In this document: positions 2 through 64,000 of the stretch, piece by piece
Numbering within the stretch: the first letter of the stretch is position 1
Layout: the number at the start of each line of letters is the position of its first letter
Assembly (NCBI GenBank): GCA_040755795.1
Contig: JBFLXS010000002.1
Coordinates: 5,109 to 69,108 of the forward strand
Length of the DNA: 64,000 nt
Reading direction: 5' to 3'
Origin: a bacterium
GTDB taxonomy: Bacteria > UBA9089 > CG2-30-40-21 > SBAY01
Made by a program: the position numbers and the translations under genes
The notes under the pieces: model-generated
What the model saw: only the letters and a program-made list of their open reading frames with translations
Databases searched by the model: none
What the model was told of the DNA's origin: nothing

Positions 2-3000
2 TTTGTTAAGGGGATTAATTCTAATAATAGTGATACGAGATACTTTGTGATTAATCGGGGCATAACAGTATTTAGTCCTGCGGTTGGTAGTGTAGGGACG
101 CTTGTAACTATAGAGGGTTGTGGATATACTCCATCAGAGGAGATAGTTGTTGGATTTGGAGAAAATCCTGTCATTGCTACGACTACTGTTTTAAATGATG
201 GTGTATTTGAGATCTCATTTACCGTTGATACACAACCGGTTGGTGCAAAGGTAGTTACTATAAAAGGTTCTATTACTCCAGGGACGATAACACAGTCGTT
301 CCAAATTGTAGGGAATATAACCTTAGTTAGTCCTGCGTCAGCGACAATTGGGACTATTGTTACGGTTAAAGGAGATGGATACGGAGTAACTGAGCTTATT
401 AGAATCCATTTTGGACAAACTCGCAACATTAATATTACCTATAGTGATTATAGAGGGGTTTTCATCACGACATTTACCGTTGATACGCAAACATACGGAA
501 GTAAGACAGTAATTGCGGCAAGTGGAGGTCAAGAGATTAGCAGATACTTTACAATTATTGGTAGAGTTTGGCAGGTGTCACCTACAAGTGGGAGTGTAGG
601 GACAATTATAACTATCTGGGGTGATGGATATAGTGAGAACGAGAAGATAGGAGTTTATTTTGGGAAAGGAACTTCCTCGCAATATTTCGTTGGCACAACT
701 ACGGCGGCATCTACTCTATACGGTGGAACATTCTCAACGACATTTACAATAACTACCCAACCTGTAGGAACGACAACGGTTATTGCTAAAGGTGCGGGTG
801 CTTCATATCAAGAAACCTTGAATTTTGTAGCCATAATAGGTAATATTATCCTTATTTCACCTCCACAAGGAACCGTAGGCTCACGCGTTACGGTAGCGGG
901 TAATGGATATGGAATACAGGAACGAGTATTTATTGATTTTGGCACGACTAATACTATTATGGTTACTACTACTGATAATATCGGGTCATTTACTACTTTC
1001 TTTACTATTGATACACAAATTTATGGAACGACAACGGTGGTTGCAACAGGTAAAGAATCCGGACAAATATCCACAGACCCATTTGTGATTATTCCAGAAA
1101 TTACTCTTATTTCACCAACAAAGGGTCCTGCCTGGACAATCGTTTCAGTAACCGGTAATGGTTATGGTAACTCAGAACTTGTGAGAATAAGTTTTGGGAC
1201 AACGGTGACGATTGCTCTTACTTCTTCTAATTATCGTGGTGAATTTGAGACCACATTTAGCGTGGATACGCAACTTTATTATAAGAATACTATTGTCGCT
1301 ACAGGTATCTTCACCGGGCAGGCAAGTGTTAAACAAGGAGTGTTCTTTGTTACCCCAAGAATTGTTTTAGTAACTCCTGATCGTGGTTCTGTTGGTTGTA
1401 TGCTGACAGTTATTGGTAATGGTTATTCAAGTAATGAGACAGTAAAACTATTTTTGGGTATCTTTGACTATCGCTATCAAGGGATGGGTGGGACACCTAT
1501 TAGTACTTGTGTCGCAACTAATTTTGGCACCTTCTCAACTACCTTTACAATTGATATAGAACCAGCAGGAACAAAATCTGTTACTTCACGGGGTGGGTCA
1601 TCGGCTGCAACTTCTACTTATGATATCTTTATTGTAGGTGAAATTACTTTGGTTTCTCCTTCACAAGCGACTGTGGGAACAATAATTACCGTGAGAGGTA
1701 ATGGTTTTGATGCCAGTGAGCTTATCCAGATTGATTTTGGAACATTCCTAACCATAACTACGGTGACGACAAATATCAGAGGGACTTTTACCACGACATT
1801 TACCATTGATACACAACCTGCCGGAAGCACTACTGTGCGGGCAACTGGATTAAGAATGGGGCTGGTGAGTGAAAAGACATTGTTCATTTATGGAAATATT
1901 ATTAAAGTTACACCTACTTCGGGTTCATTAGGGACTATTATCACCGTTGTCGGCGATGGATTTGGCAGGACGGAGACGATTTATATTGATTTTGGAACCA
2001 GTAGAACTGTGGGGATTGGTTTGACTAATAGTCTGGGGACATTCTCAACTACATTTACCGTAGATATTCAGCCTTATGGTCGAACAACGATTAAAGCAAC
2101 AGGCTCTGAGACGACTTTAGTCGCATTAGGGTCATTTACGATTACAGGTCGGGTAACGGTTGTTTCACCTTCACAAGGTTCGGTTGGTAGTATAGTTACT
2201 GTAGAAGGCACAGGATATGGTGTCAGTGAGTTAATTGGTATAGATTTTGGTACACATCCGACCATTACTATTACCTCATCTGATTGGAATGGTCAATTTA
2301 GAACCACATTTACTATCGATACCCAGATTGCCGCTACAAAGACGGTTGTGGCGAGAGATAAGAATACTTCCGCCGCAAACTTCTTTGCAGTTAGAGGTGA
2401 TGTAACCCGTATCTGGTATGATAGTGGTCCAGTGGGAACTGTGGTTACTGTATGGGGTAATGGTTATGGTGCGACTGAGGATATATTTGTCCAGTTTGGT
2501 ACGACACTTACTATTACTACTTCTACCTCCAATGGCATTGGTGAATTTATTGCTAATTTCACGGTTGATGAGCAGGCAGTTGCTTCTGTTACTGTAACTG
2601 TAAGAGGGATTCCTTCAGAAGAAAAGGCGATTACACACTTTCTTATCAGGCCAGGTATTTCCATGCTTGTTCCAACTGAAGGAACCGTCGGAACAATCAT
2701 TAATATAGAAGGAAAAGGATATGATCCTATAGAACCTATTCAAATCGTTTTTGGACAGACACAAACCATTACTACCACTACCACAGATGGAGTAGGAAGA
2801 TTTTTGACTACCTTTATCATTGATACCCAGGTTTATGGGACAACTTCGGTTACACCTATTGGACTTGATTCAGGCAAACAGGATACAAGATATATCTTTA
2901 TCTTCCAGGAAATTGCTGTGGTAAGTCCAGATGGGGGGACAGTAGGGACTATTGTTAGTATTGTTGGCACAGGATTTTATGCCACAGAACTTATTCAGAT

Positions 3001-21000: not shown

Positions 21001-22090
21001 TACGATTGATACCCAATCTTATGGGCAAAAGACTGTTACAGCTGTAGGCTTGAAGATAGGGCAGGCATCAAGCGTTATCTTTAATATTCTACCACAATTA
21101 GTTAGTATTTCACCAACTGAAGGTTCGGTTGGCAGGATAGTAACATTATTTGGAACAGGATATAAGACCCAGGAACAGGTGCAAATAGACTTTGGCACAA
21201 CGATGACTATTACCAAAGGACAGACATCAATTGATGGCACATTTAGCGTTACCTTTACCATTGATACTCAACCTTATGGCACAACTACGATTACGGGAAT
21301 AGGTAGAGATAGTGGAGCATCATCTACGATTACCTTCCGTATCTTGCCTAATATTGCCTGGATAACACCCACGCAAGGTAGTGTCGGAACGATAGTTACA
21401 ATTTATGGTAATGGATACAGGACGGCAGAATCCATTAAGGTTAGTTTTGGTAAGGATAGTACAGTGCAGATGACCACTACGGACTCTACTGGTAGCTGGA
21501 CAACTACCTTTACCGTAACAACACAAGTTGCTGGAACAACGACTATTACTGCCACCAATGTAGCGGACGATTTGACCTCACAATCATTCTTTGATATTTT
21601 TGCAAATATTACTGAAGTAGCTCCTCCCGACGGTATGTTAGGAGATGAGGTAACTGTAAGGGGTAATGGTTATGCGGCAAAAGAACAAATTAGAATCAGT
21701 TTTGGGACAACTATAACCCGAGTGGTGGTTACTTCTACACCAGATGGGACATGGACAGCGACATTTACAGTAGATGAGCAAAGATGTGGACCGACTACTA
21801 TTGTGGCGACTGGTTTGGGAAGTGGTGAATCCGCAACTAATACTACATTTGTTGTAGGAGTAAAAATTACCTCTGTATCTCCTGAAGTTGGAACAGTAGG
21901 AACAATTGTTATGGTGCATGGAGCTGGGTTTGGTTCTAGTGAAAGTATCCGCATTGAATTTGGCAATAATCGAACTATTGCTATGGTTACTACTAATGTC
22001 GCAGGAACATTTATTGCTACCTTTACTGTGGATACTCAATCTGCTGGGACTCATACTATTATAGCCACTAATGGCGTAGAGGCTAAAGCA
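2..22090 (+). repeat. About 88 tandem, mutually diverged 83-85 aa IPT/TIG-like units (coding tandem repeat, low nucleotide identity between neighbours). Local subfamilies are visible, e.g. the 'IHANIILVTP...VAGNGYG' units at 10.07-13.45 kb and the 'RIEFGTTxTIQ(W/L)TSTYAEGS' units at 7.5-9.5 kb.
   Basis: Hand translation. Every unit shows the recurrent motifs ...(V/I)(T/S)P-x-x-GTVGT-I-V-T-V-x-G-(N/D)-G-(Y/F)-G..., I-(D/E)-F-G-T-T, and T-F-T-(I/V)-D-T-Q-P-x-G-T-T-T-I. Confidence 0.85.
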
Positions 22091-43000: not shown

Positions 43001-46000
43001 ACGATACGAGGCACAGGTTATGCGGCGAATGAGTTAATTTATATCCACTTTGGCACAACAAATACGATAACGACAACATCTGTAGATGGACAGGGTAGCT
43101 GGACAACCACCTTTACCATAGATACACAACCTTATGGCTCTACAACCATAACAGCGGTAGGGTTGAGTTCAGGTCAGGCAAGCAATGACTTTAAGATACT
43201 GCCAGAAATATGGTCAGTGGAGTTAGCCGAAGGGACAGTAGGAACAATTGTTACGATACGAGGCACAGGCTATGCGGCGAATGAATTAGTTTATATTCAC
43301 TTTGGGACAACAAAGACAATCACAACGACCTCAGCCGCAATCGAAGGTAGTTTCACGACGACATTTACCGTCGATACACAACCTTATGGTTCGACGACAA
43401 TCACTGCGGTAGGCTTGAGTTCAAGTTCTGCAATAAATGACTTCAAGATACTGCCCGAATTATGGTCAGGGGTGCTTGCCGAAGGGACAGTAGGGACAAT
43501 CGTAACGATACGAGGCACCGGTTATGCGGCGAATGAGTTAGTTTATATCCACTTTGGCACAACAAAGACAATTACCACGACCTCAGCCTCAATCGAAGGT
43601 AGTTTCACGACGACATTTACCATTGATACGCAACCGTATGGTTCGACAACGATAACAGCGGTTGGATTGAATTCAGGTAGTGCCATAAATGACTTCAAGA
43701 TATTACCGGAATTATGGTCTGTAACACCAAAAGAAGGGACAGTAGGGACAATCGTAACGATACGAGGCACAGGCTATGCGGCGAATGAGTTAATTTACAT
43801 TCACTTTGGCACAACAAAGACAATTACCACGACCTCAGCCTCAATCGAAGGTAGCTGGACGACGACATTCACTGTTGATACACAGGGATTTGGCTCAACG
43901 ACAATAACCGCTGTAGGATTAAATTCCGGCAGTGCGATAAATTACTTCAAGATAACTGTTGAGTTATATTCAGTAACACCAACAGAGGGCACAGTAGGAA
44001 CAATAATTACGATTAAAGGCACAGGTTATAAAGCCAATGAAGAAGTAAGAATAGACTTTGGCACAACATCAAGTATTACTACGACGCAGGCAGATGAAAC
44101 AGGTAGCTGGACAGTTACATTTACCATAAATACACAACCTTATGATACAACTACAATCAAGGCAACAGGATTAACCTGTCAGGGAGAAGGGATTAATTAC
44201 TTCAAGATACTGCCAGAGTTATGGTCAGTGGTGTTAGCCGAAGGGACAGTAGGGACAATCATAACGATACGAGGCACAGGCTATGCGGCGAATGAGTTAG
44301 TTTATATTCACTTTGGCACAACAAAGACAATCACGACGACCTCAGCCGCAATCGAAGGTAGCTTCACGACGACATTTACCATCGATACGCAACCTTATGG
44401 TTCGACAACGATAACAGCGGTTGGATTGAATTCAGGTAGTGCCATAAATGACTTCAAGATACTGCCAGAGTTATGGTCAGTAGTATTAGCCCAAGGGACA
44501 GTAGGGACAATTGTAACGATACGAGGTACAGGGTATGCGGCGAATGAGTTAGTCTATATCCACTTTGGCACAACAAAGACAATCACGACGACCTCAGCGG
44601 CAATCGAAGGTAGTTTCACGACGACATTTACCATCGATACGCAACCTTATGGTTCGACGACAATCACTGCGGTAGGTCTGAGTTCAGGTAGTGCCATAAA
44701 TGACTTCAAGATACTGCCAGAATTATGGTCAGTGGTGTTAGCCGAAGGGACAGTAGGGACAATCGTTACAATCCGAGGCACAGGCTATGCGGCGAATGAG
44801 TTAATTTACATCCACTTTGGGACAACAAAGACGATTACCACGACCTCATCGGCAATCGAAGGGAGCTGGACCACAACATTTACTGTTAATACACAACCAT
44901 ATGGTTCAACAACAATTACTGCGGTAGGTTTGAATTCAGGCGAGGCGATAAATGACTTTAAGATAATACCAGAATTATGGTCTGTAACTCCAACTTCCGG
45001 AACAGTAGGTACCAGTATTACTATAAGAGGCACGGGTTATTGTGGGACAGAGGTAGTTTATATCCACTTTGGTATAACCAATACGATTACTACGGTTGTT
45101 TCAGATATAGAGGGTAGTTGGACAATTACATTTACTGCTGATGCTCAACCTTATGCAACTACTACTATAATAGCAGGAGGACAGCATAATGCACATCAGG
45201 CAAGCAATTTCTTCTCTATGAAGAGTAGGATTGTTGAGATAGTGCCACCTAAAGGTGCTATTGGACTTGAAATTACAGTTTATGGTGATGGATTTGGTGC
45301 CTCAGAATCTGTCCGGATTGATTTTAGCGACAAACCGACATTAACTTATGTTACTTCTCAACGAAATGGGCAATTTACCGCTATCTTTACTGTTCCTGAT
45401 GTATCTGCTAATCAAACAGTAACGGCTACAGGTCTTACAACGGGTGCGGAAGGTATAGATACATTTACGGTTATACCTGGTATCTCATTTATATCACCTA
45501 CCTTTGGGACTATTGGAACTATAGTTGATATTAGAGGAAGTGGTTTTGGTGTAGGAAATGAAATAAGAATAGATTTTGGCACAACGAGAAGTATTGTCGT
45601 CCTAACTGCTGATACGAGTGGAAGATTTGTTACTACCTTTACTGTTGATACTCAACCTTCAGGTTCAACTACTGTTATGGTCCAGGATGTGTTAACTTCA
45701 GCTTTTGAAGATAGAATATTTGATATTATTGGAAGAATTACCTATACTACACCTCTCATTGGAACTGTTGGGACAACTATTACCGTGCAAGGAGATGGTT
45801 ATGGAGCTACCGAGACAATACGGATTAGTTTTGGAACAACTACGACTATCGGAACAGCGACTTCAAATGCCGTAGGAACTTATACCGCTATCTTCACCAT
45901 TGATACTCAACCTTATGGAAATACGACTGTGGTAATTAAAGGTTTAACTTCTGGTGAAGAAGAAATAACACAAGTATTTATTATACCTAATATTATTGTA

Positions 46001-49000
46001 GTTACACCTGATAGAGGTAGTGTGGGGACAATAATTACTTTGAAAGGAAATGGATACAAGGCGAATGAAACAGTTCAAATTGACTTTGGTAATTATTCTA
46101 CTATCACTACCACTTCAAGTGATAACATTGGTTCATTTACTACAACCTTTACTATTGATACCCAGAAATATGGTGTTACAACTATTATTGCCAGAGGATT
46201 AGATTCAAGTTATGCTGTTGATGACCTGTTTATTATACCTAATATCATCACCGTTACGCCTTCAATTGGAACTGTGGGAACGATAATAACCGTAGCCGGT
46301 AATGGTTATGGGGCGTCAGAGACAATAACCATTAGTTTTGGAACACATCCAACTATAACGACTACTTCTACGGATGAAATAGGGTCATTCACGACTACCT
46401 TTACGATAGATACCCAGAGATATGGAACAACAACGATTATTGCTACCAATATGAGTTCGGCAGAAGGCTACTTCTTCATTATTCCAAATATAATTAACAT
46501 TACACCTAAGTCTGGAACTGTGGGCACAATAATAACATTGCAAGGTAATGGATTTGGAGCCTCCAAGACTTTAAGCATAGACTTTGGAACTACATCTACT
46601 ATTCAAATTACCTCTACTTATGCCGAAGGCAGCTTTACCACTACCTGGACAATTGATACTCAACCTTATGGTATCACCACTATTACTACCCATGGAAGTA
46701 AGGATGCATCAGGAACATTTACCATCTTACCTAATATCATTCTGATTACACCGAGTTCAGGGACAGTGGGAACGATAATAACCGTGAGAGGAAATGGCTA
46801 TGCCGCATCGGATACGGTAAGAATAGCATTTGGTATCACTCCAACAATTCAATTAGTTTCTACAGAAATATATGGTAGCTTCACTACCACATTTACTATA
46901 GATACTCAACAATATGGCATAACAACGATTGTTGCTCATGGAGATGCACAAGGCATTTCGGCTCAAGGGACTATTAGTATTCAACCCAATATCATTCTTG
47001 TTACACCAACTTCAGGAACCGTAGGAACGATAATAACCTTAAGAGGAAATGGATATTGGGCATCCGAGACAATCAGGGTAGAATTTGGGACTACGCCAAC
47101 TATACAACTAACCTCTACTTATGCAGAAGGTAGTTTCACCACCACATTTACTATAGATACACAACCTTATGGCATAACAACTATTATTGCTCATGGAAAC
47201 GGGATATTATCCGCAGGCACATTAACCATATTACCTAATACCATTTTGATTACACCGAGTTCAGGGACAGTAGGAACGATAATAACTGTGAGAGGGAATG
47301 GATATGAGGCATCGTCGGTAATCAGGGTAGAATTTGGGACTACACCTACAATACAACTAACTTCTACCTATGCCGAAGGCAGCTTTACCACTACATTTAC
47401 TATTGATACACAACCTTATGGCATAACAACTATTATTGCTCATGGAAACTGGATATTAGCAGAAGGGACATTAACCATATTACCTAATATTATTCTGATT
47501 ACACCAGATTCAGGGACAGTAGGAACGATAGTAACATTAAGAGGAAATGGTTATCGGGCATCCGAGAGAATCAGGGTAGAATTTGGGACTACGCCAACAA
47601 TACAGATAACCTCTACCTACGCAGAGGGAAGTTTCACCACCACATTTACCATAGATACACAACAGGCGGGTATAACAACCATTATTGCCTATGGAGACGG
47701 AATATTAGCCGAAGGAACATTAACTGTGTCATCGAATATTGTTCTGGTTACACCAGATTCTGGAACAGTGGGAACAGTAATAACCGTGAGAGGAAATGGA
47801 TTCAGGGCATCAGATACGATAAGGATAGATTTTGGAGTAACTCGAACAATTCAATTAACTTCTACTTATGCCGAAGGGAGCTTTACTACTACATTTACGA
47901 TTGACACGCAAAACTATGGTTCTACAACAATAACAGCATCAGATTTAGATTCACGGCAGGCGGTTAGATACTTTAAGATACTGCCAGAACTTTGGTTTGT
48001 AACTTCAACCGAAGGAACAGTAGGAACTATAGTAACGATAAGAGGGACAGGATATGCGGCGAATGAGTTAGTTTATATCCACTTTGGAACGACAAAGACG
48101 ATAACAACTACATCTTCAGCCAATGAAGGTAGCTTTACCACTACATTTACTATTGATACACAACCTTATGGCTCTACAACCATAACAGCCTTAGGATTAA
48201 GTTCAGATAAGGCAAGCAACTACTTTAAGATACTATCTTCAGTTTATGAAGTTACACCGATTGAAGGGACGGTAGGAACAATCGTTACCATCAGTGGAAT
48301 GGGATATGGGGCGTTCAAAGACATAACCATACATTTTGGCACAACTAATACCATTACTACTACTTCTACGAATATAGCAGGGTCATTTACTACAACATTT
48401 ACCGTAGATACACAACCTTATGGCACGACAACGATAACGGCATTAGGTTCTGTGGCAATTAACCACTTCAAGATACTGCCAGAGTTGTGGTATGTCAATC
48501 CAGCAGAAGGGACAGTAGGTAAGGTAGTAACAATTCGAGGGACAGGCTATGCGGCGAATGAGTTAGTCTATGTCCACTTTGGCACAACTAATACAATAAC
48601 GACAACATCTGTAGATATAGAGGGTAGCTTCACAACAACATTTACCATAGATACACAACCTTATGGCTCTACAACCATAACAGCGGTAGGTTTGAGTTCC
48701 GGTCAGGCAAGCAATGACTTCAAGATACTGCCAGAATTATGGTATGTCAGTCCAGTAGAAGGGACAGGAGGGAGTATAGTAACAATTCGAGGGACAGGCT
48801 ATGCGGCGAATGAGTTAGTCTATATTCACTTTGGCACGACTAACACGATAACAACTACTTCTTCAGCCAATGAAGGTAGTTTCACCACTACATTTACCAT
48901 AGATACACAACCTTATGGTTCTACAACGATTACAGCATTAGGTTTGAGTTCAGATAAGGCAAGTAATTACTTTAAGATACTATCTTCAGTTTATCAAGTT

Positions 49001-52000
49001 ACGCCGACTGAAGGGACGGTAGGGACAATCGTTACCATAAGTGGAATGGGTTATGGGGCGTTCAAAGACATAACCATACATTTTGGCACGACAAACACCA
49101 TTACTACTACTTTATCGAACATAGCAGGTTCATTTACCACTACCTTTACCATAGATACACAACCTTATGGCACGACAACGATAACCGCATTAGGTTCTGT
49201 GGCAATTAACCACTTCAAGATACTGCCAGAGTTGTGGTATGTCAATCCAGCAGAAGGGACGGTAGGTAAGGTAGTAACGATTCGAGGGACAGGATATACG
49301 GCACAGGAATTAGTCTATATCCACTTTGGCACGACCAACACCATAACGACAACATCTGTAGATGAACAGGGTAGCTTCACAACGACATTTACCATAGATA
49401 CACAACCTTATGGCTCTACAACGATAACAGCGTTAGGCTTAAGTTCAGGTCAAGCGATAAATGACTTCAAGATATTGCCAGAATTATGGTCTGTCAATCC
49501 AGCAGAAGGGACAGTAGGGAAGGTAATAACGATTCGCGGGACAGGATATGCGGCACAGGAAACAGTTTACATTCACTTTGGCACGACAAATACGATAACG
49601 ACAGTATCATCCGATGTCCAGGGTAGCTTCACGACTACATTTACCATAGATACACAATCTTATGGCTCTACAACGATAACAGCCGTAGGTTTGAGTTCAG
49701 ATAAGGCTATTAACTACTTTATGATATTATCTTCAGTTTATGAGGTTACGCCAACTGAAGGGACGGTAGGAACAATAGTTACCATCAGTGGAATGGGATA
49801 TGGGGCGTTTAAAGATATAACCATACATTTTGGCACGACCAATACCATTACCACTACCTCATCGAATATAGCCGGTTCATTTACTACTACCTTTACTATA
49901 GATACACAGCCTTATGGGACGACAACGATAATCGCTATAGGTTCTAAGGCAATTAACTATTTCAAGATACTGCCAGAATTATGGTATGTCAATCCAGCAG
50001 AAGGGACGGTAGGTAAGATAATAACGATTCGAGGGACAGGATATGCAGCGAATGAGTTAGTTTATGTTCATTTTGGCACGACTAATACGATAACGACAAC
50101 ATCTGCAGATGTCCAGGGTAGCTTCACCACTACATTTACCATAGATACACAACCTTATGGTTCTACAACTATAACAGCGTTAGGGTTAAGTTCAGGTCAG
50201 GCGAGCAATGACTTCAAGATACTACCAGAATTATGGTCTGTCAATCCAGCAGAAGGAACAGTAGGGAAGGTAGTAACGATTCGAGGGACAGGATATGCGG
50301 CGAATGAGTTAGTCTATATCCACTTTGGGACGACAAAGACGATAACAACTACATCTGCAGATGGACAGGGTAGCTGGACAACAACATTTACCATAGATAC
50401 ACAATCTTATGGTTCTACAACCATAACAGCGGTAGGATTGAATTCAGGTTCAGCTATCAATTATTTCAAGATACTGGTAGAGTTATATTCCATTACACCG
50501 ACAGAAGGAACAGTAGGGACGATAGTTACTATTAAAGGAACAGGATATAACGCTAATGAAGAGATAAGGATAGATTTTGGAGTTAAATCAACGATAACTA
50601 CGACACAAGCAGATGAAACAGGCAGCTGGACAGCTACATTTACCATAGACACGCAACAGTATGGTAGAACAACTATTAAGGCAACTGGATTAACCTGTCA
50701 GGGAGAAGGAATTAACTACTTCAAGATACTGCCAGAATTATGGTATGTTGAGCCAGCAGAAGGAACAGTAGGAAATATCGTAACGATTCGAGGGACAGGC
50801 TATGCGGCGAATGAATTAGTCTATATCCACTTTGGCACAACTAACACGATAACGACTACATCTGTAGATATACAGGGTAGCTTCACCACTACCTTTACCA
50901 TAGATACGCAACCTTATGGCTCTACAACGATAACAGCGTTAGGGTTGAGTTCAGGACAGGCAAGCAATGACTTCAAGATACTGCGAGAATTATGGTCAGT
51001 GGTGCTTGCGGAAGGGACAGTAGGGACAATCGTAACGATACGAGGCACCGGCTATGCGGCAAATGAGTTGATTTATATCCACTTTGGGACAACAAAGACG
51101 ATTACAACGACATCAGCGGCAATTGAAGGTAGTTTCACAACGACATTTACTATTGATACACAACCGTATGGTTCGACGACAATCACTGCGGTAGGTCTGA
51201 GTTCAGGTAGTGCCATAAATAACTTCAAGATACTGCCAGAGTTATGGTCAGTGGTGCTTGCGGAAGGGACAGTAGGAACAATCGTAACGATCCGAGGCAC
51301 CGGTTATGCGGCGAATGAGTTAGTCTATATCCACTTTGGCACAACTAATACTATAACGACTACATCTTCAGATGGACAGGGTAGCTGGACAACAACCTTT
51401 ACCATAGATACACAATCTTATGGCTCTACAACGATAACAGCGTTAGGCTTGAGTTCAGATAAGGCTATTAACTACTTTATGGTATTATCTTCAGTTTATG
51501 AGGTTACGCCAACTGAAGGGACGGTAGGGACGATAGTTACCATCAGTGGAATGGGATTTGGGGCGTTCAAAGATATAACCATACATTTTGGCACGACTAA
51601 TACGATTACGACCACTGTGTCAAATATAGCAGGTTCATTTACCACAACATTTACCATAGATACACAGCCTTATGGCACGACAACGATAATCGCTTTAGGT
51701 TCGAAGGCAATTAACTACTTTAAGATACTGCCAGAATTGTGGTATGTCAATCCAGCAGAAGGGACAGTAGGAAGTATAGTAACGATACGAGGGACAGGGT
51801 ATGCGGCGAATGAGTTAGTTTATATCCACTTTGGCACAACTAATACCATAACAACTACATCTTCAGATATTCAGGGTAGTTTCACCACAACATTTACAAT
51901 TGATACCCAGAATTATGGCTCTACAACCATAACAGCTTTGGGATTAAGTTCAGGCCAGGCTATTAATGATTATAAGATAATGCCAGCTGTCTGGTATGTC

Positions 52001-55000
52001 ATTCCACCAAAGGGAACAGTTGGCAGCACGGTGATGATAAGAGGGACAGGGTATGAAGCCAATGAGTTAGTTTATATCCACTTTGGGACAACAAAGACGA
52101 TAACAACTACATCTGCAGATATAGAAGGTAGCTGGACAACTACATTTACCATAGATACACAACCTTATGGCAGCACAACGATAATCGCATTAGGGTTAAG
52201 TTCAGACAAGGCGACTAATTACTTTATGATTGTTCCAAGATTATGGTATGTGAGTCCAGTAGAAGGGACAGTAGGGAGTGTAGTAACGATTCGTGGAACA
52301 GGATATGCGGCTTATGAGCCAGTAAATATCTTCTTTGGAACTACGGTATTACCTATTATGCAAACCTTAGTAGATGTTGAAGGAAGTTTCACCACGACAT
52401 TTACTGTTGATACACAACCTTATGGCACTACGACGATAGTGGCTACTGGTGTGAATTCTCTTATTCCAGATGCTAATTATTTCAAGATACTGCCAGAATT
52501 ATGGTATGTCAGTCCAGCAGAAGGGACAGTGGGTACGGTAGTAACGATTCGAGGGACAGGCTATGCGGCGAATGAATTAGTCTATATCCACTTTGGCACG
52601 ACTAATACGATAACGACAACATCTGTAGATGGACAGGGTAGCTTCACAACTACATTTACCATAGATACACAATCTTATGGTAGCACAACCATAACAGTCT
52701 TAGGGTTAAGTTCAGGTCAGGCGAGCAATGACTTCAAGATACTGCCAGAATTATGGTCTGTCAATCCAGCAGAAGGGACAGTAGGTAAGATAGTAACGAT
52801 AAGAGGAACAGGCTATGCGGCGAATGAGTTAGTTTATATCCACTTTGGCACAACTAATACCATAACGACTACATCTTCAGCCATAGAAGGTAGCTTTACC
52901 ACTACATTTACCGTAGATACGCAGTCTTATGGTTCTACAACTATTACCGCCGTAGGGTTGAGTTCAGACAAGGCAACTAATTACTTTATGATATTATCTT
53001 CAGTTTATGAGGTTACACCGACTGAAGGAACGGTAGGGACAATCGTTACCATCAGTGGAATGGGATTTGGGGCGTTCAAAGATATAACCATACATTTTGG
53101 CACGACTAAGACGATTACTACTACTTCTTCGGATATAGCCGGTTCATTCACCACTACCTTTACTATAGATACACAACCTTATGGAACGACAACGATAACC
53201 GCTTTAGGTTCGAAGGCAATTAACTACTTCAAGATACTACCAGAATTATGGTATGTTAATCCAGCCGAAGGGACAGTAGGTCAGGTAGTAATGATTCGGG
53301 GGACAGGCTATGCGGCGAATGAGTTGGTCTATATCCACTTTGGCACAGCAAATACAATCACGACGACCTCAGCCGGAATTGAAGGTAGTTTCACGACGAC
53401 ATTTACTATTGATACACAACCTTATGGCTCTACAACCATAACAGCATTAGGTTTGAGTTCAGATAAGGCAATAAATGACTTCAAGATACTGCCAGAGTTA
53501 TGGTCAGTGGTGCTTGCGGAAGGGACAATAGGAACAATCGTAACAATCCGAGGCACCGGCTATGCGGCGAATGAGTTAATTTATATCCACTTTGGCACAA
53601 CAAATACAATCACGACGACCTCAGCGGCAATTGAAGGTAGTTTCACGACGACATTTACTATTGATACACAACCGTATGGTTCGACGACAATCACTGCGGT
53701 AGGTCTGAGTTCAGGTAGTGCCATAAATAACTTCAAGATACTGCCAGAATTATGGTCAGTGGTGTTAGCCGAAGGGACAGTGGGGACAATCGTAACAATC
53801 CGAGGCACCGGCTATGCGGCGAATGAGTTAATTTACATTCACTTTGGCACAACTAATACAATTACGATGACCTCAGCCGCAATCGAAGGTAGTTTCACGA
53901 CGACATTTACTATTGATACACAACCTTATGGCTCTACAACCATAACAGCATTAGGTTTGAGTTCAGATAAGGCAATAAATGACTTCAAGATACTGCCAGA
54001 GTTATGGTCAGTGGTGCTTGCGGAAGGGACAGTTGGAACAATTGTAACGATTCGAGGCACCGGCTATGCGGCGAATGAGTTAATTTACATTCACTTTGGG
54101 ACAACAAAGACAATCACGACGACCTCAGCCGCAATTGAAGGTAGTTTCACGATGACATTTACCATTGATACACAACCTTATGGTTCGACGACGATAACAT
54201 CAGTTGGCTTGCATTCAGGTAGTGCCATAAATGACTTCAAGATATTGCCGGAATTATGGTCTGTAACACCAAAAGAAGGGACAGTTGGGACAATCGTCAC
54301 AATTCGAGGGACAGGATATGCGGCGAATGAGTTAATTTATATCCACTTTGGGACAACAAATACAATCACGACGACCTCATCCGCAATTGAAGGTAGTTTC
54401 ACGACGACATTTACCATTGATACACAACCTTATGGTTCGACGACGATAACAGCGGTTGGATTGAATTCAGGTAGTGCCATAAATGACTTCAAGATACTAC
54501 CAGAATTATGGTCTGTCAGTCCAACAGAAGGGACAGTAGGTAAGATAGTAACAATTCGAGGAACAGGCTATGCGGCGAATGAGTTAATTTACATTCACTT
54601 TGGCACAACTAATACCATAACGACAACATCTGCAGATGGACAGGGTAGCTGGACTACAACCTTTACTATAGATACACAATCTTGTGGCTCTACAATTATT
54701 ACAGCCGTAGGGTTGAGTTCAGGTTCAGCTATCAATTACTTCAAGATAATGGCAGAATTATATTCAGTTACACCGACAGAAGGAACGGTAGGAACTATTG
54801 TTACGATTAGAGGAACAGGGTATTTAGCCAGTGAGCAAATAAGGATAGACTTTGGAGTTAAATCAACGATAACGACAACACAAGCAGATGGAATAGGTAG
54901 TTGGACAGTTACCTTTACCATAGATACCCAGGCCTATGGTAACACTACCATTAAATCTACTGGATTAATATCTCAGGGAGAAGGGATTAACTACTTCAAG

Positions 55001-58000
55001 ATACTACCAGAGTTATGGTCAGTGGTGCTTGCTGAAGGGACAGTAGGAACAATTGTTACAGTCCGAGGCACAGGCTATGCGGCGAATGAGTTGGTCTATA
55101 TCCACTTTGGCACAACTAACACGATAACGACAACATCTGCAGATATAGAAGGTAGCTTCACCACAACATTTACTATTGATACACAACCTTATGGTTCTAC
55201 AACCATAACAGCGTTAGGTTTGAGTTCAGACAAGGCAATAAATGACTTCAAGATACTGCCAGAGTTATGGTCAGTGGTGCTTGCTGAAGGGACAGTAGGA
55301 ACAATTGTTACAATCCGAGGCACAGGCTATGCGGCACAGGAATTAATTTACATCCACTTTGGGACAACAAATACAATCACGACGACCTCAGTCGCAATTG
55401 AAGGTAGTTTCACAACAACATTTACTATTGATACACAACCTTATGGTTCAACGACAATCACTGCGGTAGGTCTGAGTTCAGGTAATGCGATAAATAACTT
55501 CAAGATACTGCCAGAATTATGGTCAGTGGTGTTAGCCGAAGGGACAGTAGGGACAGTAGTGACGATACGAGGCACAGGTTATGCGGCGAATGAATTAATT
55601 TACATTCACTTTGGGACAACAAATACAATTACGACGACCTCAGCCGCAATTGAAGGTAGTTTCACAACGACATTTACTATTGATACACAGCCTTATGGTT
55701 CGACGACGATAACAGCAGTCGGCTTGAATTCAGGTAGTGCGATAAATTACTTCAAGATACTGCCAGAGTTATGGTCAGTGGTGTTAGCCGAAGGGACAGT
55801 GGGGACAGTAGTGACGATACGAGGCACCGGTTATGCGGCGAATGAGTTAATTTACATTCACTTTGGCACAACTAACACGATAACAACAACATCTGCAGAT
55901 GGACAGGGTAGCTGGACAACTACATTTACCATAGATACTCAACGCTATGGTTCAACAACCATTACTGCCGTAGGTTTGAGTTCTTCATCTGCTATTAATT
56001 ACTACAAGATAACTCCTGATTTATGGTATGTAAGTCCAACGCAAGGAACGGTTGGAACAATTGTTACCATTAGAGGCACGGGTTACTCAGTTGGTGATGT
56101 CCGAATAGACTTTGGAACGACAAGAACTATCACCACTACACAGGCGGTTGCAGAAGGTAGTTTCACCACTACATTTACTGTGAATATTCAACCTGTAGGC
56201 AAGACGACTATTGCCGCAGTGGGCATTAATGGCGAAGGAAATATTAACTTCTTTACCATCACAGGTGGAATTAGAATATCACCTACCACTGGGACAGTAG
56301 GAATAGTAGTAACGGTGTTTGGTAATGGATATGCTTCAACAGAGCAGGTGAGGGTTGATTTTGGCACCACTCCTACCCTGTCAATAGTTACAGCGGAGCC
56401 AGTAGGGACATTTATTGCTATGTTCACTGTTACCACTCAACCTTATGGCACGACAACGGTTACGGCTACTGGACCAATAACAGGGTCTGCGATAGACTTC
56501 TTTGTCATTACACCTGAATTATTTAGTGTTATACCAAATGCAGGGACAGTAGGTAGCATAGTAATAATTCGAGGCACAGGTTATGCGGCGAATGAGAGAG
56601 TTTATATCCACTTTGGGACAACTAATACGATAACTACTACATCTTCAGACATAGAAGGAAGCTGGACAACAACATTTACTATAGATACACAACCTTACGG
56701 TTCTACAACCATAATAGCGTTAGGCTTGAGTTCAGGTTCAGCTATTAACTATTGCAAGATACTGCCAGAGTTATGGTCAGTAGTGCTTGCGGAAGGGACA
56801 GTAGGGACAATCGTCACAATCCGAGGCACAGGCTATACGGCGAATGAGTTAGTTTATATTCACTTTGGCACAACTAATACGATAACCACTACATCTGCAG
56901 ATATAGAGGGTAGCTGGACAACTACATTTACTATAGATACTCAACCTTATGGTTCTACAACGATAACCGCCATAGGGTTAAGTTCGGGTTCAGCCATAAA
57001 TGACTTCAAGATACTGCCTGAATTATGGTTCGTCAATCCAGCAGAAGGAACAGTAGGCAAGATAGTGATGATAAGAGGAACAGGCTATGCGGCGAATGAG
57101 GCAGTTTATATCCACTTTGGCACAACAAAGACGATAACAATGGTATCTTCAGTTATTGAAGGTAGTTTCACAACAACATTTACCATAGATACACAACCTT
57201 ATGGCACAACGACCATTGTTGCCTCAGGATTGAATTCAGGAGAGGCGATTAATTACTTCAGAGTCCTGCCGGAGGTATTCAGTGTTACTCCGAAAGAAGG
57301 CACAGTGGGAACAATAGTTACTATTCGTGGGACAGGATATGGTGCAAATAAGATAATTAATGTTCACTTTGGAACAACAAATACTATTACTACGGCGAGT
57401 TCAGATATAATTGGTTCATTTACCGCAACATTTACTGTGGATACGCAACCTTATGGCACAACAACTATTGTTGCTACAGGTTGTTCGGCAATTAACTACT
57501 TCAAGATATTACCAGATGTTTGCTATGTTACGCCTACATCAGGGACTGTGGGAAGTATTGTGACGGTTCGTGGAACAGGCTATGCGGCTTCAGAAGAGGT
57601 CTATGTCCATTTTGGCACAACAAAGACGATTACAACTACGGTTTCTGCTCAAGAAGGTAGCTTCACCACGACATTTACTGTGGATACACAAGTTTATGGC
57701 ACAACAACAATTATTGCGGTAGGATTAGGTTCAGGAGAGGCGATTAATTATTATAGGATAACTCCTGATTTGTGGTATGTCAATCCACAACAAGGCACAG
57801 TAGGAACAATTGTTACGATTAAAGGCACAGGTTATACCCCTGGTGAGGTGCGAATAGACTTTGGCACAACTCAAACTATTACTACTACTCAGGCAGATAA
57901 TACAGGTAGTTTGACGACGACATTTACCATAGATACGCAACCATTAGGTATAACAACTATTGCGGCAGCTGGTGCTAATGCTGAAAGAAATATTAACTTC

Positions 58001-61000
58001 TTCACGATTACTGGTGGTATTAGAATATCGCCAACTACGGGTTCAGTAGGAACGATAGTAACCGTGTTTGGTAATGGTTATGCGGCAACAGAACAAGTCC
58101 GTGTTGATTTTGGGACAACACCAACATTAGCCATAACAACAACTGATAATATAGGTTCATTTACGGTAACCTTTACCGTAACGACACAACCTTATGGAAC
58201 AACAACTATCATTGTTACCGGAGCAGAGGCAGGTTCTGTCTGCATTACCTTCTTCATCACGCCAGATGTATTTATGGTTAGTCCAGATACAGGAACAGTG
58301 GGAACAGTAATTACTATTCGTGGGACAGGTTATGCTGGGAGAGAAGATGTTTATATCCACTTTGGCACAACGCAGACGATTACCATTACTACTTCAGCTA
58401 TTGAAGGCAGTTTCACGACGACATTTACCATTGATACACAGCCGTATGGTAGCACGACCATTACGGGATTAGGCTTAAATTCCAGTTCAGCTATTAATTA
58501 CTTTAAGATTATACCGCAGATTATTCAGGTTACACCAGATACAGGAACAGTTGGAACAATAATTACGATTCGTGGGACAGGATATGGAAATGGCGAAGAT
58601 GTCTTCATCCACTTCGGCACGACACAAACGATTACCAGGACTATTACCGATATAGAAGGCAGCTGGACTACAACATTTACTATTGATACACAACCGTATG
58701 GGACGACGACAATTACTTCTGTGGGAGAGACTACACCGCAGGCGATTAATTACTTTAAGATTACACCAGAAATAATTAGGGTTACGCCAACTCAAGGCAC
58801 AGTGGGAACAATAGTAACAATTCGTGGGACAGGTTATGCCGGGACAGAAGAAGTCTATATCCACTTTGGCACAACGAAGACGATTACGACTACGGTTTCA
58901 GATATCGCTGGTAGCTGGACAACAACATTTACGATTGACCCACAGGCTTATGGCTCAACAACCATTACTGCGCTTGGATTACGGTCAGATTCAAATATTG
59001 CTTACTTCAAAGTGTTAGGCGAATTATACTTAGTTTCACCGAAGGAAGGGACCGTGGGGACGATAGTAACCATTAGTGGAACAGGATATCAATCCAGTGA
59101 GACTGTCCAGATAAGTTTTGGCAACAAGACGACGATAACTACAGGTCATGTAATAGACACAGGCGTCTTTATCCTTACATTTACAATTGATACGCAGGTT
59201 TATGGGTCAACAACAATTATTGCCACTGGTCTCTCATCAGCCATAGAAGGTATTAATTACTTTAAGATAATACCAGATGTAATTATGGTGAGTCCATCAA
59301 TTGGGACTGTGGGGACAATCGTTACCATTCGTGGGACTGGTTATGCCGGATTAGAAGAGTTGTATGTCCATTTTGGCACGACAAAGACAATTACTACAAC
59401 GACTTCAGATATGGAAGGTAGCTGGACAACAACATTTACTATTGATACACAACCGTATGGTTCAACAACAATTACCGTGTTAGGATTTGGTTCTGGAGAG
59501 GATATTTCCTACTTTAAGATAACACCTCAAATTTGGGATGTTACACCGACTTCAGCGACAGTAGGAACAATAATTACCATTCGTGGCACAGGTTATGCCG
59601 GGACAGAGGAGATTTATATCCACTTTGGCACGAATAAGACGATTACTACTACTGTTTCTGCCATAGAAGGAAGTTGCACAACAACATTTACCATTGATAC
59701 ACAACCTTATGGCACGACAACGATTCTCGCAGGAGGCTTGAAGTCTGATGAGGCAATTAATTACCTGAAGATAACTCCACAATTAGTTTCAGTAACACCA
59801 ACAGAGGGAACAATAGGAACACTAATAACTATTTGTGGAACAGGTTATGCCAGCAGTGAGACAGTTTATATCCACTTTGGGATACGCAATACTATTACCA
59901 CTACTGTTTCAGGCATCGAAGGAAGTGTGACAACTACCTTTACCATTGATACTCAACCTTATGGAACGACAACTGTGGTAGCATTAGGCTTGAAGTCCGC
60001 AGTTGCCATTAATTACTTTAAGATATTACCGGCATTGTTTATGGTCAGTCCAACAGAAGGGACTGTGGGCACAATAGTAACAATAAGAGGTAATGGTTAT
60101 ATTGGGACAGAAGAGATTTATATCCACTTTGGCACAACAAGGACGATTGCCACGGTTATCTCAGAGCTACAGGGAAGCTTTACCACAACATTTACAGTGG
60201 ATACACAACCTTATGGGTCAACAACTATCACAGGCGTTGGTAGTTGTGGTGAGTCAATTAACTACTTTAAGATTACACCAGAGTTGTGGTTTGTAACTCC
60301 AACAAAAGGAACAATAGGAACAATTCTAACTATTCGTGGAACTGGTTATACGCCAGGTGAGGTGCGAATAGACTTTGGCACGACAGAATCTATCACCCTT
60401 ACTCAAGCAGAAATAGAGGGAAGTTTCACCACGACATTTACCGTAAATACACAAATATTAGGTAAGACAACAATTAGAGCCACAGGTATTAATCAGGAAA
60501 CCAATATTAACTATTTTGTGATTATTGGTGGAGTTGAGGTATCGCCGACATCTGGCACGGTTGGGTCAATAGTGACGGTATGTGGAACAGGATATGCGGC
60601 AAGTGAAGAGATAAGGATTAATTTTGGCACAACACCTTCAATTACGAAAGTTATCGCTACTGAAGCGGGAACATTTACCGTAACCTTTACCATTGATACA
60701 CAACCTTATGGCACCACCACCGTTAGAACGATAAGTTCAGATACAGGTTCAGCCACAACTTACTTTACCATTCTACCCGACCTGTGGCAAGTTAGTCCAT
60801 CAGAAGGCACAGTAGGAACAATAGTTACTATTCGTGGGACAGGTTATGCCTATCAAGAAACAGTTTCGATACATTTTGGAACAACATTTACCATTACCAC
60901 AGCTCAAGGTTCTAAACAAGGTAGCTGGACGACGAAATTCACAGTAGATATGCAACCTTGTGGTAGCACCACGATTACTGCCGTAGGTGATACATCAGGC

Positions 61001-64000
61001 ACGGCTATTAACTATTTTGTCATAAATCCAGAAATATACTCTGTAACTCCAACTCAAGGGACAGTTGGAACAATAGTTACCATTAAAGGTAGTGGTTACA
61101 GGCTAAGTGATGACATACAGATAGATTTCGGCACTACATTAACTATTATGGTTGCTTCTTCTAATGATGCAGGGACATTTACCGCTACCTTTACTATAGA
61201 TACTCAAGCCTACGGAACTACAACCATAACCGCCAAAGGTTCAGCAGTGGGAATAGCGGTGAATTACTTCAAGATAACTCCAGATGTATTTTTTGTTTCA
61301 CCAACAGAGGGCACCGTTGGGACAATAATTACTATTCGTGGTACAGGTTATGCCGGTGGTGAGACAGTAGATATTCATTTTGGCAGGGCTAAGACCATCA
61401 CCACAGCGTTAGTAGATGCACAGGGCACTTTCACTACTACCTTTACCATAGATACACAACCTTATGGAACAACTACAATTACGGGAGTTGGTCCCACCTC
61501 TTCGCAGGCAATTAATTACTTTAAGATATTATCAGAGATAGTTTCGGTTACTCCAACGGAAGGAACGGTAGGAACAATAGTTACTATCTGCGGAACTGGT
61601 TATAGAGATACAAAGAGAGTTTATATCCACTTTGGCACGACTAATACTATTACAACAACTACTTCAGATTATGAAGGTTCATTTACTACTACCTTTACCA
61701 TTGATACTCAACCTTATGGCACAACAACGATAATGGCAGTAGGGTCTCCACAGGCAATCAACTACTTCAAGATATTACCGGATGTTATCTTTGTCAGTCC
61801 AACATCAGGCACGGTTGGAACTATAGTTACTGTTCGTGGAACGGGTTATGCTGGCACAGAGGAAGTTTATATCCACTTTGGCACTACCAATACCATAACT
61901 ACTACCGTATCCGCTATACAGGGTAGTTGGACAACGACATTTACCATAGATACCCAATCTTATGGAACAACTACAATAATAGCCGTAGGATTAAAGTCAG
62001 GAGAGGATTATAATTACTTCTTTATAAATTCAATGACTTATCTAACTCCTTTACAGGGAACAGTAGGTCAGTTGGTAACCATAAGGGGTGAAGGTTATAA
62101 TGATGGAGAGACTATAGCTATACACTTTGGAGAGATTTTGACTATATGTACTGCACTGGTGGCTCAAGAAGGTTCATTTACGGCTATATTTACTGTTGAT
62201 ACTCAGATTTTTGGGACAAAGACAATAACCGTAGTAAGTGAGATTGAAACGAGAACTCATTTGTTTAAGATAAGAGGTGGAGTGATAGTATCGCCCAGAA
62301 GTGGAATAGTGGCGACACTTGTTACCCTGTATGGAACAGGATATGGAGCCAGTGAGCCAATCATCATAGGTTTTGGTGGTAATCCAACCATATCTTGTGC
62401 AACAACCTCTGATAATGGGACATTCTCAACGCAATTTATGGCTGATGTTCAGGTACCTGGTCCGGTGGTAATTACTGCCAGTGGTTTGATAACCGGTGAA
62501 GTAGCATCTACTACCTTTACGCTGGTCAGAATATTCTTAAATCCAAATGTTGGCTATGGACAAAAAGATGCAATTACTCTAATCTCAGGTAAAGGATTTA
62601 TGGAGGGAGCAACCGTAACTGCTAATTCTATTAAATTCAATGGTGCATTTACCGCACAACATCCCCCAATAACTATTCAACCAGGAGGTAATTTACCAAC
62701 AACTACTTTGACATTACCAGCGATGCCGTGGGGAACTTATACGGTTCATATGATAGTTTCAGGAGAGGAATTTGTATTTGCAGATAGTTATAGAGTTATA
62801 CCGCGGATTATAATGAATCCAGGTGCGGGTAGTGGTCAGACGGGTAATACAAGTACTATAACAGGTTCAGGATTCTATGGGACGACAGGTGGAACGACTA
62901 TACTAATGAATAGTATTAAGGTAGGTGGCAATCCGACTGAACATCCAGAAGTGGTTGTATCTGATGTGGGAACATTCTCAGTTACAGTTGCTCTGTCACA
63001 ACTTAACCAAGCAGGGGGTTATGCGGCAGATATTGTCCAGACTAAGGAAAATATAGGTTCATGGACATATAGATTTGAAAATGTCTATTATCGAACTTCA
63101 CCACCTCAGTTACGATGGACAGGAGAGTCTGGTTATACACAGGATGGACTTAATCCAGAAGAGGGTCTAAATACTACAATTTATACTTACCGTATAAGAT
63201 ATTACGATTTTGATAATGATGACCCATTACCTGGCTATCCAAAGGTGATTATTTATAAAGGTACTAATGTTTATGCTTCATTGACTATGACAAAGATAGA
63301 TAATTATCTACCGAGGTCAGCTCCACGATATGAAGTTCAAACAACCCTTCCAGATGGAATGTACTCCTATTATATTGTGGCGTATGATAAATGGGGAGCG
63401 CCAGCCAATGGTGTCTCAGGAGTATGGCGTGAGGGACCAAGAGTAGGACAATTCCCAACACTTAGATGGGTAGGCGCACCTGACTATATCAATACGGGTG
63501 TATCTCCAAAAGTTGGCTCTGAGGGAACGCTATTTAATTATCGGGTAGTGTATCGAGATTCAAGTAATCGGCCACCAGTATTTGGGACAAATAGCCCAAT
63601 AGTGATTATAGAAAAAGATGGATTACCCTATGCCACTTATACTCTGGGTACTATTTCCTTGCTGGGAGGAACTGCAACTCCTTATCGAGATGGTGTGATT
63701 TATGGTACTGAGACTTCTCTTCTGGTAAGAGGTTCATATACACATAGATTTAAAGTACAAATAGCCATAGGAACGGATACATTTATAGAAGCACAGGGAA
63801 CGCCAACATTAATCAATTCAGGACCGACAGTGGTAACCCTTCCATATCTTAGTTGGTTAGGAGCACTAGGATATACGGATGATGGCGTAGAACCCGATAT
63901 TGGACAGATAGGAGATATCTTTGAATTTAAGGTGAAATATACAGGTTCTACTGCACCTGAATTGATACGACTATATCTTATGAGTCAAAATGGAACAATT
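2..64000 (+). CDS. Internal fragment of a giant repetitive protein gene, partial at both ends, at least 21,333 codons in this window. It encodes tandem IPT/TIG-like Ig-fold domains (extender array) followed by a distinct distal domain module. Probably an extracellular or cell-surface fibrillar adhesin-like protein.
   Basis: Phase-2 reading frame on the + strand hand-translated with no stop codon. Checked in register at 68, 9983, 22022, 36485, 50051, 59942, 63842 and 63998 (all congruent to 2 mod 3). Every unit-length difference is a multiple of 3. The ORF track lists no phase-2 + strand ORF, as expected for a stop-free frame without an in-window terminus. Variation between units is mainly codon third positions and conservative substitutions. 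Neither start nor stop codon is in the window. Confidence 0.9.
22598..24601 (+). repeat. Higher-order repeat copy A (8 units) of the 22.1-28.1 kb block
   Basis: Begins with the PEIILISPKEG and QLTQVSPPQG marker units and ends with the ...GISFKGTVT unit. The next copy starts at 24602. Confidence 0.75.
24602..26359 (+). repeat. Higher-order repeat copy B (7 units)
   Basis: Same ordered succession of unit variants as copy A with one unit fewer. Nucleotide identity to A and C is visibly above 90%. Confidence 0.75.
26360..28140 (+). repeat. Higher-order repeat copy C (7 units). The last unit decays into the diverged units that follow.
   Basis: Same marker pair at 26360-26893. Carries a 3-aa in-frame insertion (HQDDDGLKVEG) in one unit. 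The array diverges after about 28140 (NIILITPTAGTVGRTITIAGNGFGATEKIQIDFG). Confidence 0.7.
28141..35340 (+). repeat. About 29 diverged IPT/TIG-like units, including atypical units with loop insertions (28.7-29.9 kb) and a degenerate unit at 30.84-31.0 kb
   Basis: Hand translation. Same motif skeleton, low inter-unit identity. Confidence 0.8.
35341..56000 (+). repeat. About 82 near-identical 252 bp / 84 aa units. Consensus ELWSVVLAEGTVGTIVTIRGTGYAANELVYIHFGTT(K/N)TITTTSAAIEGS(F/W)TTTFTIDTQPYGSTTITAVGL(N/S)SG(S/E)AINDFKILP. Includes embedded variant units and sub-HORs.
   Basis: Adjacent units, e.g. 38413-38664 vs 38665-38916, differ at only a handful of nucleotides. Antisense artefact ORFs (MPRIVTIVPTVPSASTTDHNSG...) recur with exactly 252-bp or 504-bp spacing (38251 and 38503; 39007 and 39259; 40239-end and 40743-end). 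Confidence 0.9.
56001..62040 (+). repeat. About 24 moderately diverged units related to the 35-56 kb family (..IRGTGYAG(T/L)EE(V/I)YIHFGTT(K/N)TITTTVS(D/A)IEGSWTTTFTIDTQPYG..), punctuated by 'ITPDLWYV(S/N)P..G.VRIDFG' and 'ITGGIRISPTTG..VFGNGYA.TEQVRVDFG' marker units
   Basis: Hand translation. Marker pairs at about 56010/56270, 57760/58020 and 60290/60520. Confidence 0.8.
62041..62527 (+). other. Two terminal, degenerate IPT/TIG-like units closing the extender array (INSMTYLTPLQGTVGQLVTIRGEGYNDGETIAIHFG... and RGGVIVSPRSGIVATLVTLYGTGYGASEPIIIGFGGNPTIS...)
   Basis: The motif skeleton is retained but strongly diverged. They are the last units carrying G-x-G-Y-x-x-x-E and F-T-V-D-T-Q-like motifs. 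Confidence 0.7.
62528..63091 (+). other. Two domains with a more classical IPT/TIG signature (RIFLNPNVGYGQKDAITLISGKGFMEGATVTANSIKFNG...YTVHMIVSGEEF and RIIMNPGAGSGQTGNTSTITGSGFYGTTGGTTILMNSIKVGGNPTEHPEVVVSDVGTFSVTV...)
   Basis: Pattern P-x-x-G-x-x-x-G-x-T-x-I-T-(L/I)-x-G-x-G-F ... (V/I)-K-(F/V)-(N/G)-G ... V-x-V, as in IPT/TIG/plexin-type Ig-like domains. Sequence family differs from the upstream array. Confidence 0.5.
63092..64000 (+). repeat. At least 3 copies (third truncated by the window) of a different repeat of about 120-130 aa: P-x-L-(R/S)-W-x-G-x-x-x-Y-x-x-x-G-(V/L)-x-P-x-x-G-x-x-x-T-x-(F/Y)-x-(Y/F)-(R/K)-(I/V)-x-Y-x-D...P ... (V/I)-x-(I/L)-x-x-x-G-x-x-Y-A. Unnamed beta-rich repeat, a candidate distal functional module.
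   Basis: Copy 1 at 63092-63451 (PPQLRWTGESGYTQDGLNPEEGLNTTIYTYRIRYYDFDNDDPLPGYPKVIIYKGTNVYASLTMT...). Copy 2 at 63452-63838 (FPTLRWVGAPDYINTGVSPKVGSEGTLFNYRVVYRDSSNRPPVFGTNSPIVIIEKDGLPYATYTLG...). Copy 3 from 63839 (LPYLSWLGALGYTDDGVEPDIGQIGDIFEFKVKYTGSTAPELIRLYL...). Confidence 0.6.

Follow-up and report, generated by a model that had tools for sequence, protein, structure and literature searches.

Several kinds of giant protein have been described in bacteria. RTX adhesins such as MhLap (PDB 6xi3), MpIBP (region RII, 4p99/4kdw) and SiiE are thin rods of head-to-tail Ig-like beta-sandwiches of about 85-105 residues, and they span distance from the cell surface. [quoted passage not shown] SprB, together with SprF, represents the giant adhesins exported by the T9SS; it forms very large, repetitive surface filaments, begins with a Sec signal and carries a T9SS sorting domain at its C-terminus. 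Genes for type B T9SS cargo lie in clusters with those of their PorV-like barrels, the presumed anchors of the cargo (PMC10202324). The Omnitrophota/PVC-related giant 'tandem-repeat scaffold' proteins are mostly multi-enzyme or transmembrane-rich, and the highest copy number of a single Pfam family reported for them is 41 (West-Roberts et al. 2023; bioRxiv 10.64898/2026.06.07.730766). Neither of these two sources mentions a TIG array or a T9SS link. The Pfam IPT/TIG proteins, such as CGTase domain D, plexin/Met IPT and EBF1, have a seven-stranded E-set Ig-like fold and typically carry about 1-10 copies per chain.

The window analyzed here, the whole stretch of 64,000 nucleotides, is covered by one open frame. 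Frame +2 has no stop codon among 21,333 codons (nt 2-64000), whereas 855-2,595 stops were found in each of the other five frames over the same 64 kb. Taking the stop frequency of about 7.5% in the other forward frames as the chance baseline, a chance origin of the open frame is impossible in practice. The frame is cut at both the 5' and the 3' edge of the window, and since it runs past both edges, it had no entry in the ORF listing. The visible protein has 21,333 aa and a mass of 2.24 MDa. By length it falls in the 'large' gene class of West-Roberts et al. (at least 10,000 aa), while their 'giant' class starts at 30,000 aa and the window, with both gene ends outside, shows at least 21,333 aa. 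The gene is probably a single giant one of more than 64 kb, of which the window is an internal piece that extends in the C-terminal direction. Its source bacterium is, on balance, a relative of Candidatus Desantisbacteria; the MAGs of this group supplied most of the related sequences. The protein shares with the Omnitrophota/PVC giants the ORF length above 10,000 aa and the origin in uncultivated small-celled bacteria, but it comes from a different phylum and has 246 copies of one domain.

A unit HMM built from the sequence itself recognized 246 contiguous complete units between aa 22 and 20844 (nt 65-62533), with scores of 60-112 bits. The unit period is mostly 84-85 aa (range 81-105 aa), the linkers comprise only few residues, and the mean pairwise identity of the units is 49% at the protein level. 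Positions P5, G8, G11, G18, G20, F31, G32, G46, F52, Q57 and G60 are invariant or nearly so. An earlier note on this DNA had put the count at about 248 units, each of 83-84 aa, and the array end at nt 62527, which is right within two units and 6 nt. It had let the tandem array begin at nt 2; the units do run up to nt 62533, but the translation of the first 21 aa (aa 1-21, nt 2-64) gives only the C-terminal tail of an edge-cut unit. The array and the gene extend upstream of the window.

Parts of different divergence follow one another along the array, and these as well as all other features lie on the + strand. Units 1-90 (nt 65-23125) form an old diverged part with about 40% amino acid and about 53% DNA identity between units and no higher-order period. 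Units 91-110 (nt 23126-28147) are a younger block, organized in a higher-order repeat of 7 units, where DNA identity is 0.855 at offset 7 against 0.65-0.72 at neighboring offsets; Tandem Repeats Finder reports it as a row at 23120-28071. A second old diverged stretch, again with about 40% amino acid identity, is represented by units 111-138 (nt 28148-35386). The youngest expansion block comprises units 139-177 (nt 35387-45232), which are 81-87% identical in protein and about 79% in DNA (Tandem Repeats Finder row 35366-55983). The 7-unit period is present here also (0.855 at offset 7), with GC up to 0.44 and AT skew up to 0.16. Units 178-189 (nt 45233-48244) form an intermediate block, and units 181-190 are closest to units 91-110 (about 63% amino acid identity). 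Units 190-222 (nt 48245-56521) form a second young block with 72-83% amino acid identity to units 141-170 and mixed 3-, 7- and 10-unit offsets. The final part, units 223-246 (nt 56522-62533), shows intermediate divergence of 50-65%, and its last solid unit ends at aa 20844. Tandem Repeats Finder detected periods of 246-252 nt in the younger parts only; the low mean identity of the units explains why it misses the older ones.

Codon analysis of unit pairs with a protein identity of 90% or more gave pS of 0.28 and pN of 0.025 (dN/dS about 0.07), which shows that the units are under strong purifying selection with saturating synonymous divergence. All units differ, the highest unit-to-unit DNA identity being 0.98, and the longest exact DNA repeat in the window is 186 nt. 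Given the dN/dS value and the short exact repeats, the array has arisen neither from faulty assembly nor by recent expansion. Repeat arrays are error-prone in assembly, and homologues in short-read MAGs are split into many partial contigs, so that an assembly error or collapse in the repeat, a satellite without coding function or a pseudogene in decay but open by chance had to be weighed. The stop-free frame, the distinct and selected units, the confidently predicted protein fold and the same architecture on contigs of 33-57 kb from at least three independent assemblies all speak against it, and an artefact of this kind is hardly credible. The array probably grew by duplication of 7-unit blocks, after which each unit was held by strong purifying selection while the synonymous sites drifted apart. 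Such divergence probably makes the DNA of the array recombinationally stable. The units thus differ from the DNA-identical repeats of MpIBP in being diverged and strongly recoded at synonymous sites. In the Omnitrophota/PVC giants the nucleotide tandems are likewise dissolved by synonymous change while the domain architecture is kept.

The fold of the units was predicted with AlphaFold2 on a three-unit model (pLDDT 94, pTM 0.78). Each unit appeared as a seven-stranded E-set Ig-like beta-sandwich, superposable on solved TIG domains, and the high pTM of the three-domain model points to a defined geometry between the domains. When the 246 units were scanned singly against Pfam, TIG (PF01833, gathering cut-off 20.9 bits) was matched by 45 of them at E<=0.01 (best 9.8e-7), so about four fifths miss this E-value and most units stay under the Pfam threshold. 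At E<=4e-4, roughly the gathering score, 14 of the 123 units in the first half of the array matched. No other Pfam family had more than two matching units. Among unit triplets, 5 of 82 matched TIG, with a best E-value of 3.7e-10. Pfam scans with the unit consensus sequence or with 500-aa pieces gave no TIG match, and per-unit scans were required; the DUF5639, DUF6378 and S-AdoMet_synt_N matches of those scans proved to be summed noise with no passing stretch. A small 7-unit paralogue (L023:527-2500) scored 76.2 bits for TIG and is matched seven times by the window unit HMM. TIG membership is found directly for a minority of units and, by transitivity, for the unit family. The significant TIG matches, in single units and in three-unit segments, and the predicted beta-sandwich bear out the IPT/TIG Ig-fold reading of the earlier note. 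HMMER recovered the position-by-position motif alignment on which that reading was built, with domain D of cyclodextrin glucanotransferase (CGTase 1cyg residues 500-604) as the partner, but weakly (E 0.03); this was the sole PDB profile match to a solved TIG domain.

The units share with the IPT/TIG proteins the fold and the N-terminal P-x-x-G...G-x-x-I/V-T-I-x-G-x-G-F/Y motif. They differ as a divergent subfamily with its own signature, F31-G32, G46, F52 and D55-x-Q57-P-Y-G60, and in a copy number per chain far above the typical one. The Thr-Gln ester-bond domain (PF18202 'TQ', Cpe0147 type) came up as a lead in the triplet scan and was lost in per-unit scans and PDB searches, and the units do not belong to it. 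With Q57 invariant, a Thr-Gln ester bond stays in consideration at low probability. The unusually conserved pole formed by T9, H/D/E30, D55 and the invariant Q57 might, though this is improbable, serve in rigid domain stacking or in an autocatalytic intradomain cross-link.

After the end of the array, other module types occupy nt 62534 to the end of the window. At nt 62534-63100 there are two transition modules, each about 95 aa long and apparently beta-rich, which are colinear with aa 531-727 of the homologue L015. The first has a sub-threshold TIG match of 16.6 bits, the second has none, and they are not detectably copies of the array unit (hhalign probability 1.3%). They are followed by modules of a family of about 120 aa with the pattern 'LxWxGxxGY..DG..P..G...F.F.V.Y.D.......GYPKV'. 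Module 1 (nt 63101-63454) was delimited by jackhmmer segmentation and alignment and matches PDB 6fhj residues 821-915, i.e. CBM84 or its adjacent module (E 1.7e-8). Module 2 (nt 63455-63841) was placed by segmentation and alignment, and module 3 (nt 63839-64000) by segmentation and homology; only the start of the latter is present, as it is cut by the window end. This is a rare beta module. The visible protein is therefore a chain of at least 246 diverged Ig-like beta-sandwich domains of the IPT/TIG type, which the two transition modules and then the array of about 120-aa modules follow.

The C-terminal 489 aa of the window are colinear with aa 531-996 of L015 (phmmer 1e-164). The homologues L015 and L030 have 13 and 10 of the 120-aa modules, respectively, followed by a C-terminal domain. 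By homology with these two, about 7-10 further modules, a T9SS-type C-terminal domain and a stop codon should follow beyond the window. The signal peptide, the C-terminal domain and the PorV neighbor were seen only in homologues 40-55% identical, both ends of the window gene lying outside. In the homologue L023 the gene starts with a typical Sec signal peptide (KPKHFILILIAAFMLIGSVITASA, judged by eye) and continues directly with units; the long-ORF start at 2902 is produced by a scaffold gap of 100 N, and the real start is near 2588. The C-terminal domain of L030 scored 29.8 for TIGR04183 (cut-off 23) and 27.1 for PF18962 (cut-off 27), and that of L015 scored 22.8 for TIGR04183, just under the cut-off; similarity to type B (CHU_C) was sub-threshold in both. 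Another unit-bearing protein (L018) scored 32.2 for CHU_C and 29.9 for FlgD_ig (cut-off 27 for each). A PorV/PorQ-family gene is situated directly downstream of the giant gene in L015 (141.1 bits) and L030 (135.2 bits; NF033709 PorV_fam, cut-off 90), and in L006 a PorV_fam gene (164 bits) adjoins a gene with beta-helix and units. Judged from these homologues, the full protein would lead from a Sec signal peptide straight into the units; its C-terminal side would consist of about 10-13 modules of the 120-aa family and, at the very end, a sorting domain resembling T9SS type A. The gene directly downstream is predicted to encode an outer-membrane barrel of the PorV/PorQ family.

The earlier note had compared the array with RTX adhesins such as MpIBP and SiiE. 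The Ig-like fold, the thin rod of head-to-tail domains and the presumed role in spanning distance from the cell surface are indeed common to both, and the window protein has at least twice as many domains as MpIBP. The comparison fails for sequence family and export, since the window units are TIG and export probably follows Sec and a T9SS-like pathway instead of T1SS, the relatives having a Sec signal peptide, a T9SS-type domain, a PorV neighbor and no RTX repeats. A classical T1SS adhesin of the MpIBP, LapA or SiiE type, with an N-terminal retention module and Ca2+-stiffened linkers, would suit the acidic protein (pI 4.7, about 6 Asp+Glu per unit), a composition compatible with Ca2+ binding and not diagnostic. 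But the GGxGxD nonapeptide was absent from the 21,333 aa of the window and from the C-terminal regions of L015 and L030, which are complete; homologues end in T9SS-type domains beside PorV-family genes, and the units match TIG and not the Big or Cadherin-like families of RTX extenders. T1SS substrates lack the Sec signal peptide with which the L023 homologue begins. This explanation is very improbable and already largely refuted. In view of the Sec, T9SS and PorV features of the relatives and the absence of RTX, SprB/SprF and not MpIBP or SiiE is the closest working analogue.

Like SprB, the window protein is very large and repetitive and probably sits on the cell surface, and its homologues point to a Sec signal at the start and a T9SS sorting domain at the end. 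Both cargo genes lie in a cluster with the gene of a PorV-like barrel of their own (PMC10202324; here in homologues). It differs from SprB/SprF in its host outside Bacteroidota (Candidatus Desantisiibacteriota), in a homologue C-terminal domain that scores as type A, and in being an almost pure homopolymer of one domain. Nothing ties it to gliding motility. It is at least three times as long as SprB.

The evidence leans towards a giant TIG array exported by Sec and a T9SS-like route, anchored by its C-terminus through a PorV-like partner and forming a fibre of about 1 micrometre. The chain would leave the cytoplasm via Sec, and the C-terminal domain would hand it to a T9SS-like outer-membrane pathway. 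A dedicated PorV-like partner would then hold the C-terminal end on the cell surface, as for SprB with SprF. The TIG array would jut outward as a thin fibre of about 1 micrometre (246 x 4-4.75 nm), the per-domain length being taken from the MpIBP RII tetra-tandemer of about 190 A for 4 repeats (PMC4083281). The fibre could touch surfaces or other cells, or build a long surface coat. Thus the product is most likely a micrometre-long cell-surface fibre; its length and rigidity are estimated by analogy, and its role may be that of an extender or adhesive. Two points of background count against the T9SS-like route: PorV-family barrels occur outside T9SS contexts too, and T9SS cargo is usually thought to fold in the periplasm before export, which fits badly with a folded rod of about 1 micrometre. 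The T9SS, with its CTD cargo, is described as a system of Bacteroidota alone (PMC10202324), which also counts against this route, and a literature search found no paper tying Desantisbacteria to the T9SS.

The array itself may also be the product, as a surface coat such as a long layer of hairs, a spacer, matrix fibre, sheath or released tether without a distal ligand-binding tip, which is possible though unlikely. As no distal binding 'head' follows the signal peptide in L023, an adhesin role for the fibre tip is unsupported. The non-TIG modules are found solely at the C-terminal end, presumably cell-proximal, and small secreted proteins of seven units alone adjoin the giant gene and occur in several genomes. 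Part of the T9SS type A cargo is released and not anchored (PMC10202324). However, a head domain may lie upstream, as the N-terminus is outside the window, and beta-helix or NosD-like heads are present on other unit-bearing proteins (L011, L022 and L009). The 120-aa modules, which resemble a carbohydrate-enzyme accessory module (6fhj, a xanthanase), could also bind if the topology were reversed. The anchored micrometre-long fibre is preferred over a tipless coat or matrix.

Whole contigs of 57, 56 and 33 kb in at least three independent assemblies consist of one open frame of the array unit. In NCBI MAGs the closest relatives amount to incomplete pieces a few hundred residues long, and the best-scoring catalogue matches to the array repeat have up to 7,284 aa. 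No close relatives of the C-terminal 489 aa were found in GTDB genomes, JGI metagenomes and a 5.8-billion-cluster protein collection. An exhaustive profile search returned 9,029 matches, which represent a wider superfamily. The longest of them, P0047 (7,284 aa), P0059 (6,156 aa), P0056 and P0121, were rejected as close relatives; they are distant TIG-like arrays of Cys-containing units with different anchors, namely C-terminal transmembrane segments and NHL/beta-propeller ends. Short-read MAGs and protein catalogues systematically overlook giant repeat genes of this kind. In MAG Yes70-11 the unit-bearing contigs sum to about 120 kb, with one gene start and one gene end among them. This hints at a single gene of well over 100 kb, whose product would exceed 35,000 aa and 400 TIG domains. 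Such a multi-micrometre fibre of one polypeptide, equivalent to a single-chain pilus and exported and anchored in a T9SS-like manner outside Bacteroidota, is an improbable extreme.

As a probable giant tandem-Ig surface protein, the gene product is unusual in size and of a kind already known. Titin has about the same number of tandem Ig-like domains. If expressed as one chain, the window protein would have a titin-like domain number while being bacterial and almost purely homopolymeric, and its length would be roughly double that of the longest characterized bacterial adhesin extender. This raises the question how a fibre that exceeds 2.2 MDa, measures about 1 micrometre and is recognized via its C-terminal domain would pass the outer membrane, and whether T9SS-like sorting and PorV-like anchoring occur in candidate phyla beyond Bacteroidota. 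It also raises the question how a repeat array of 64 kb stays stable, for which synonymous recoding under strong purifying selection is the suggested answer.

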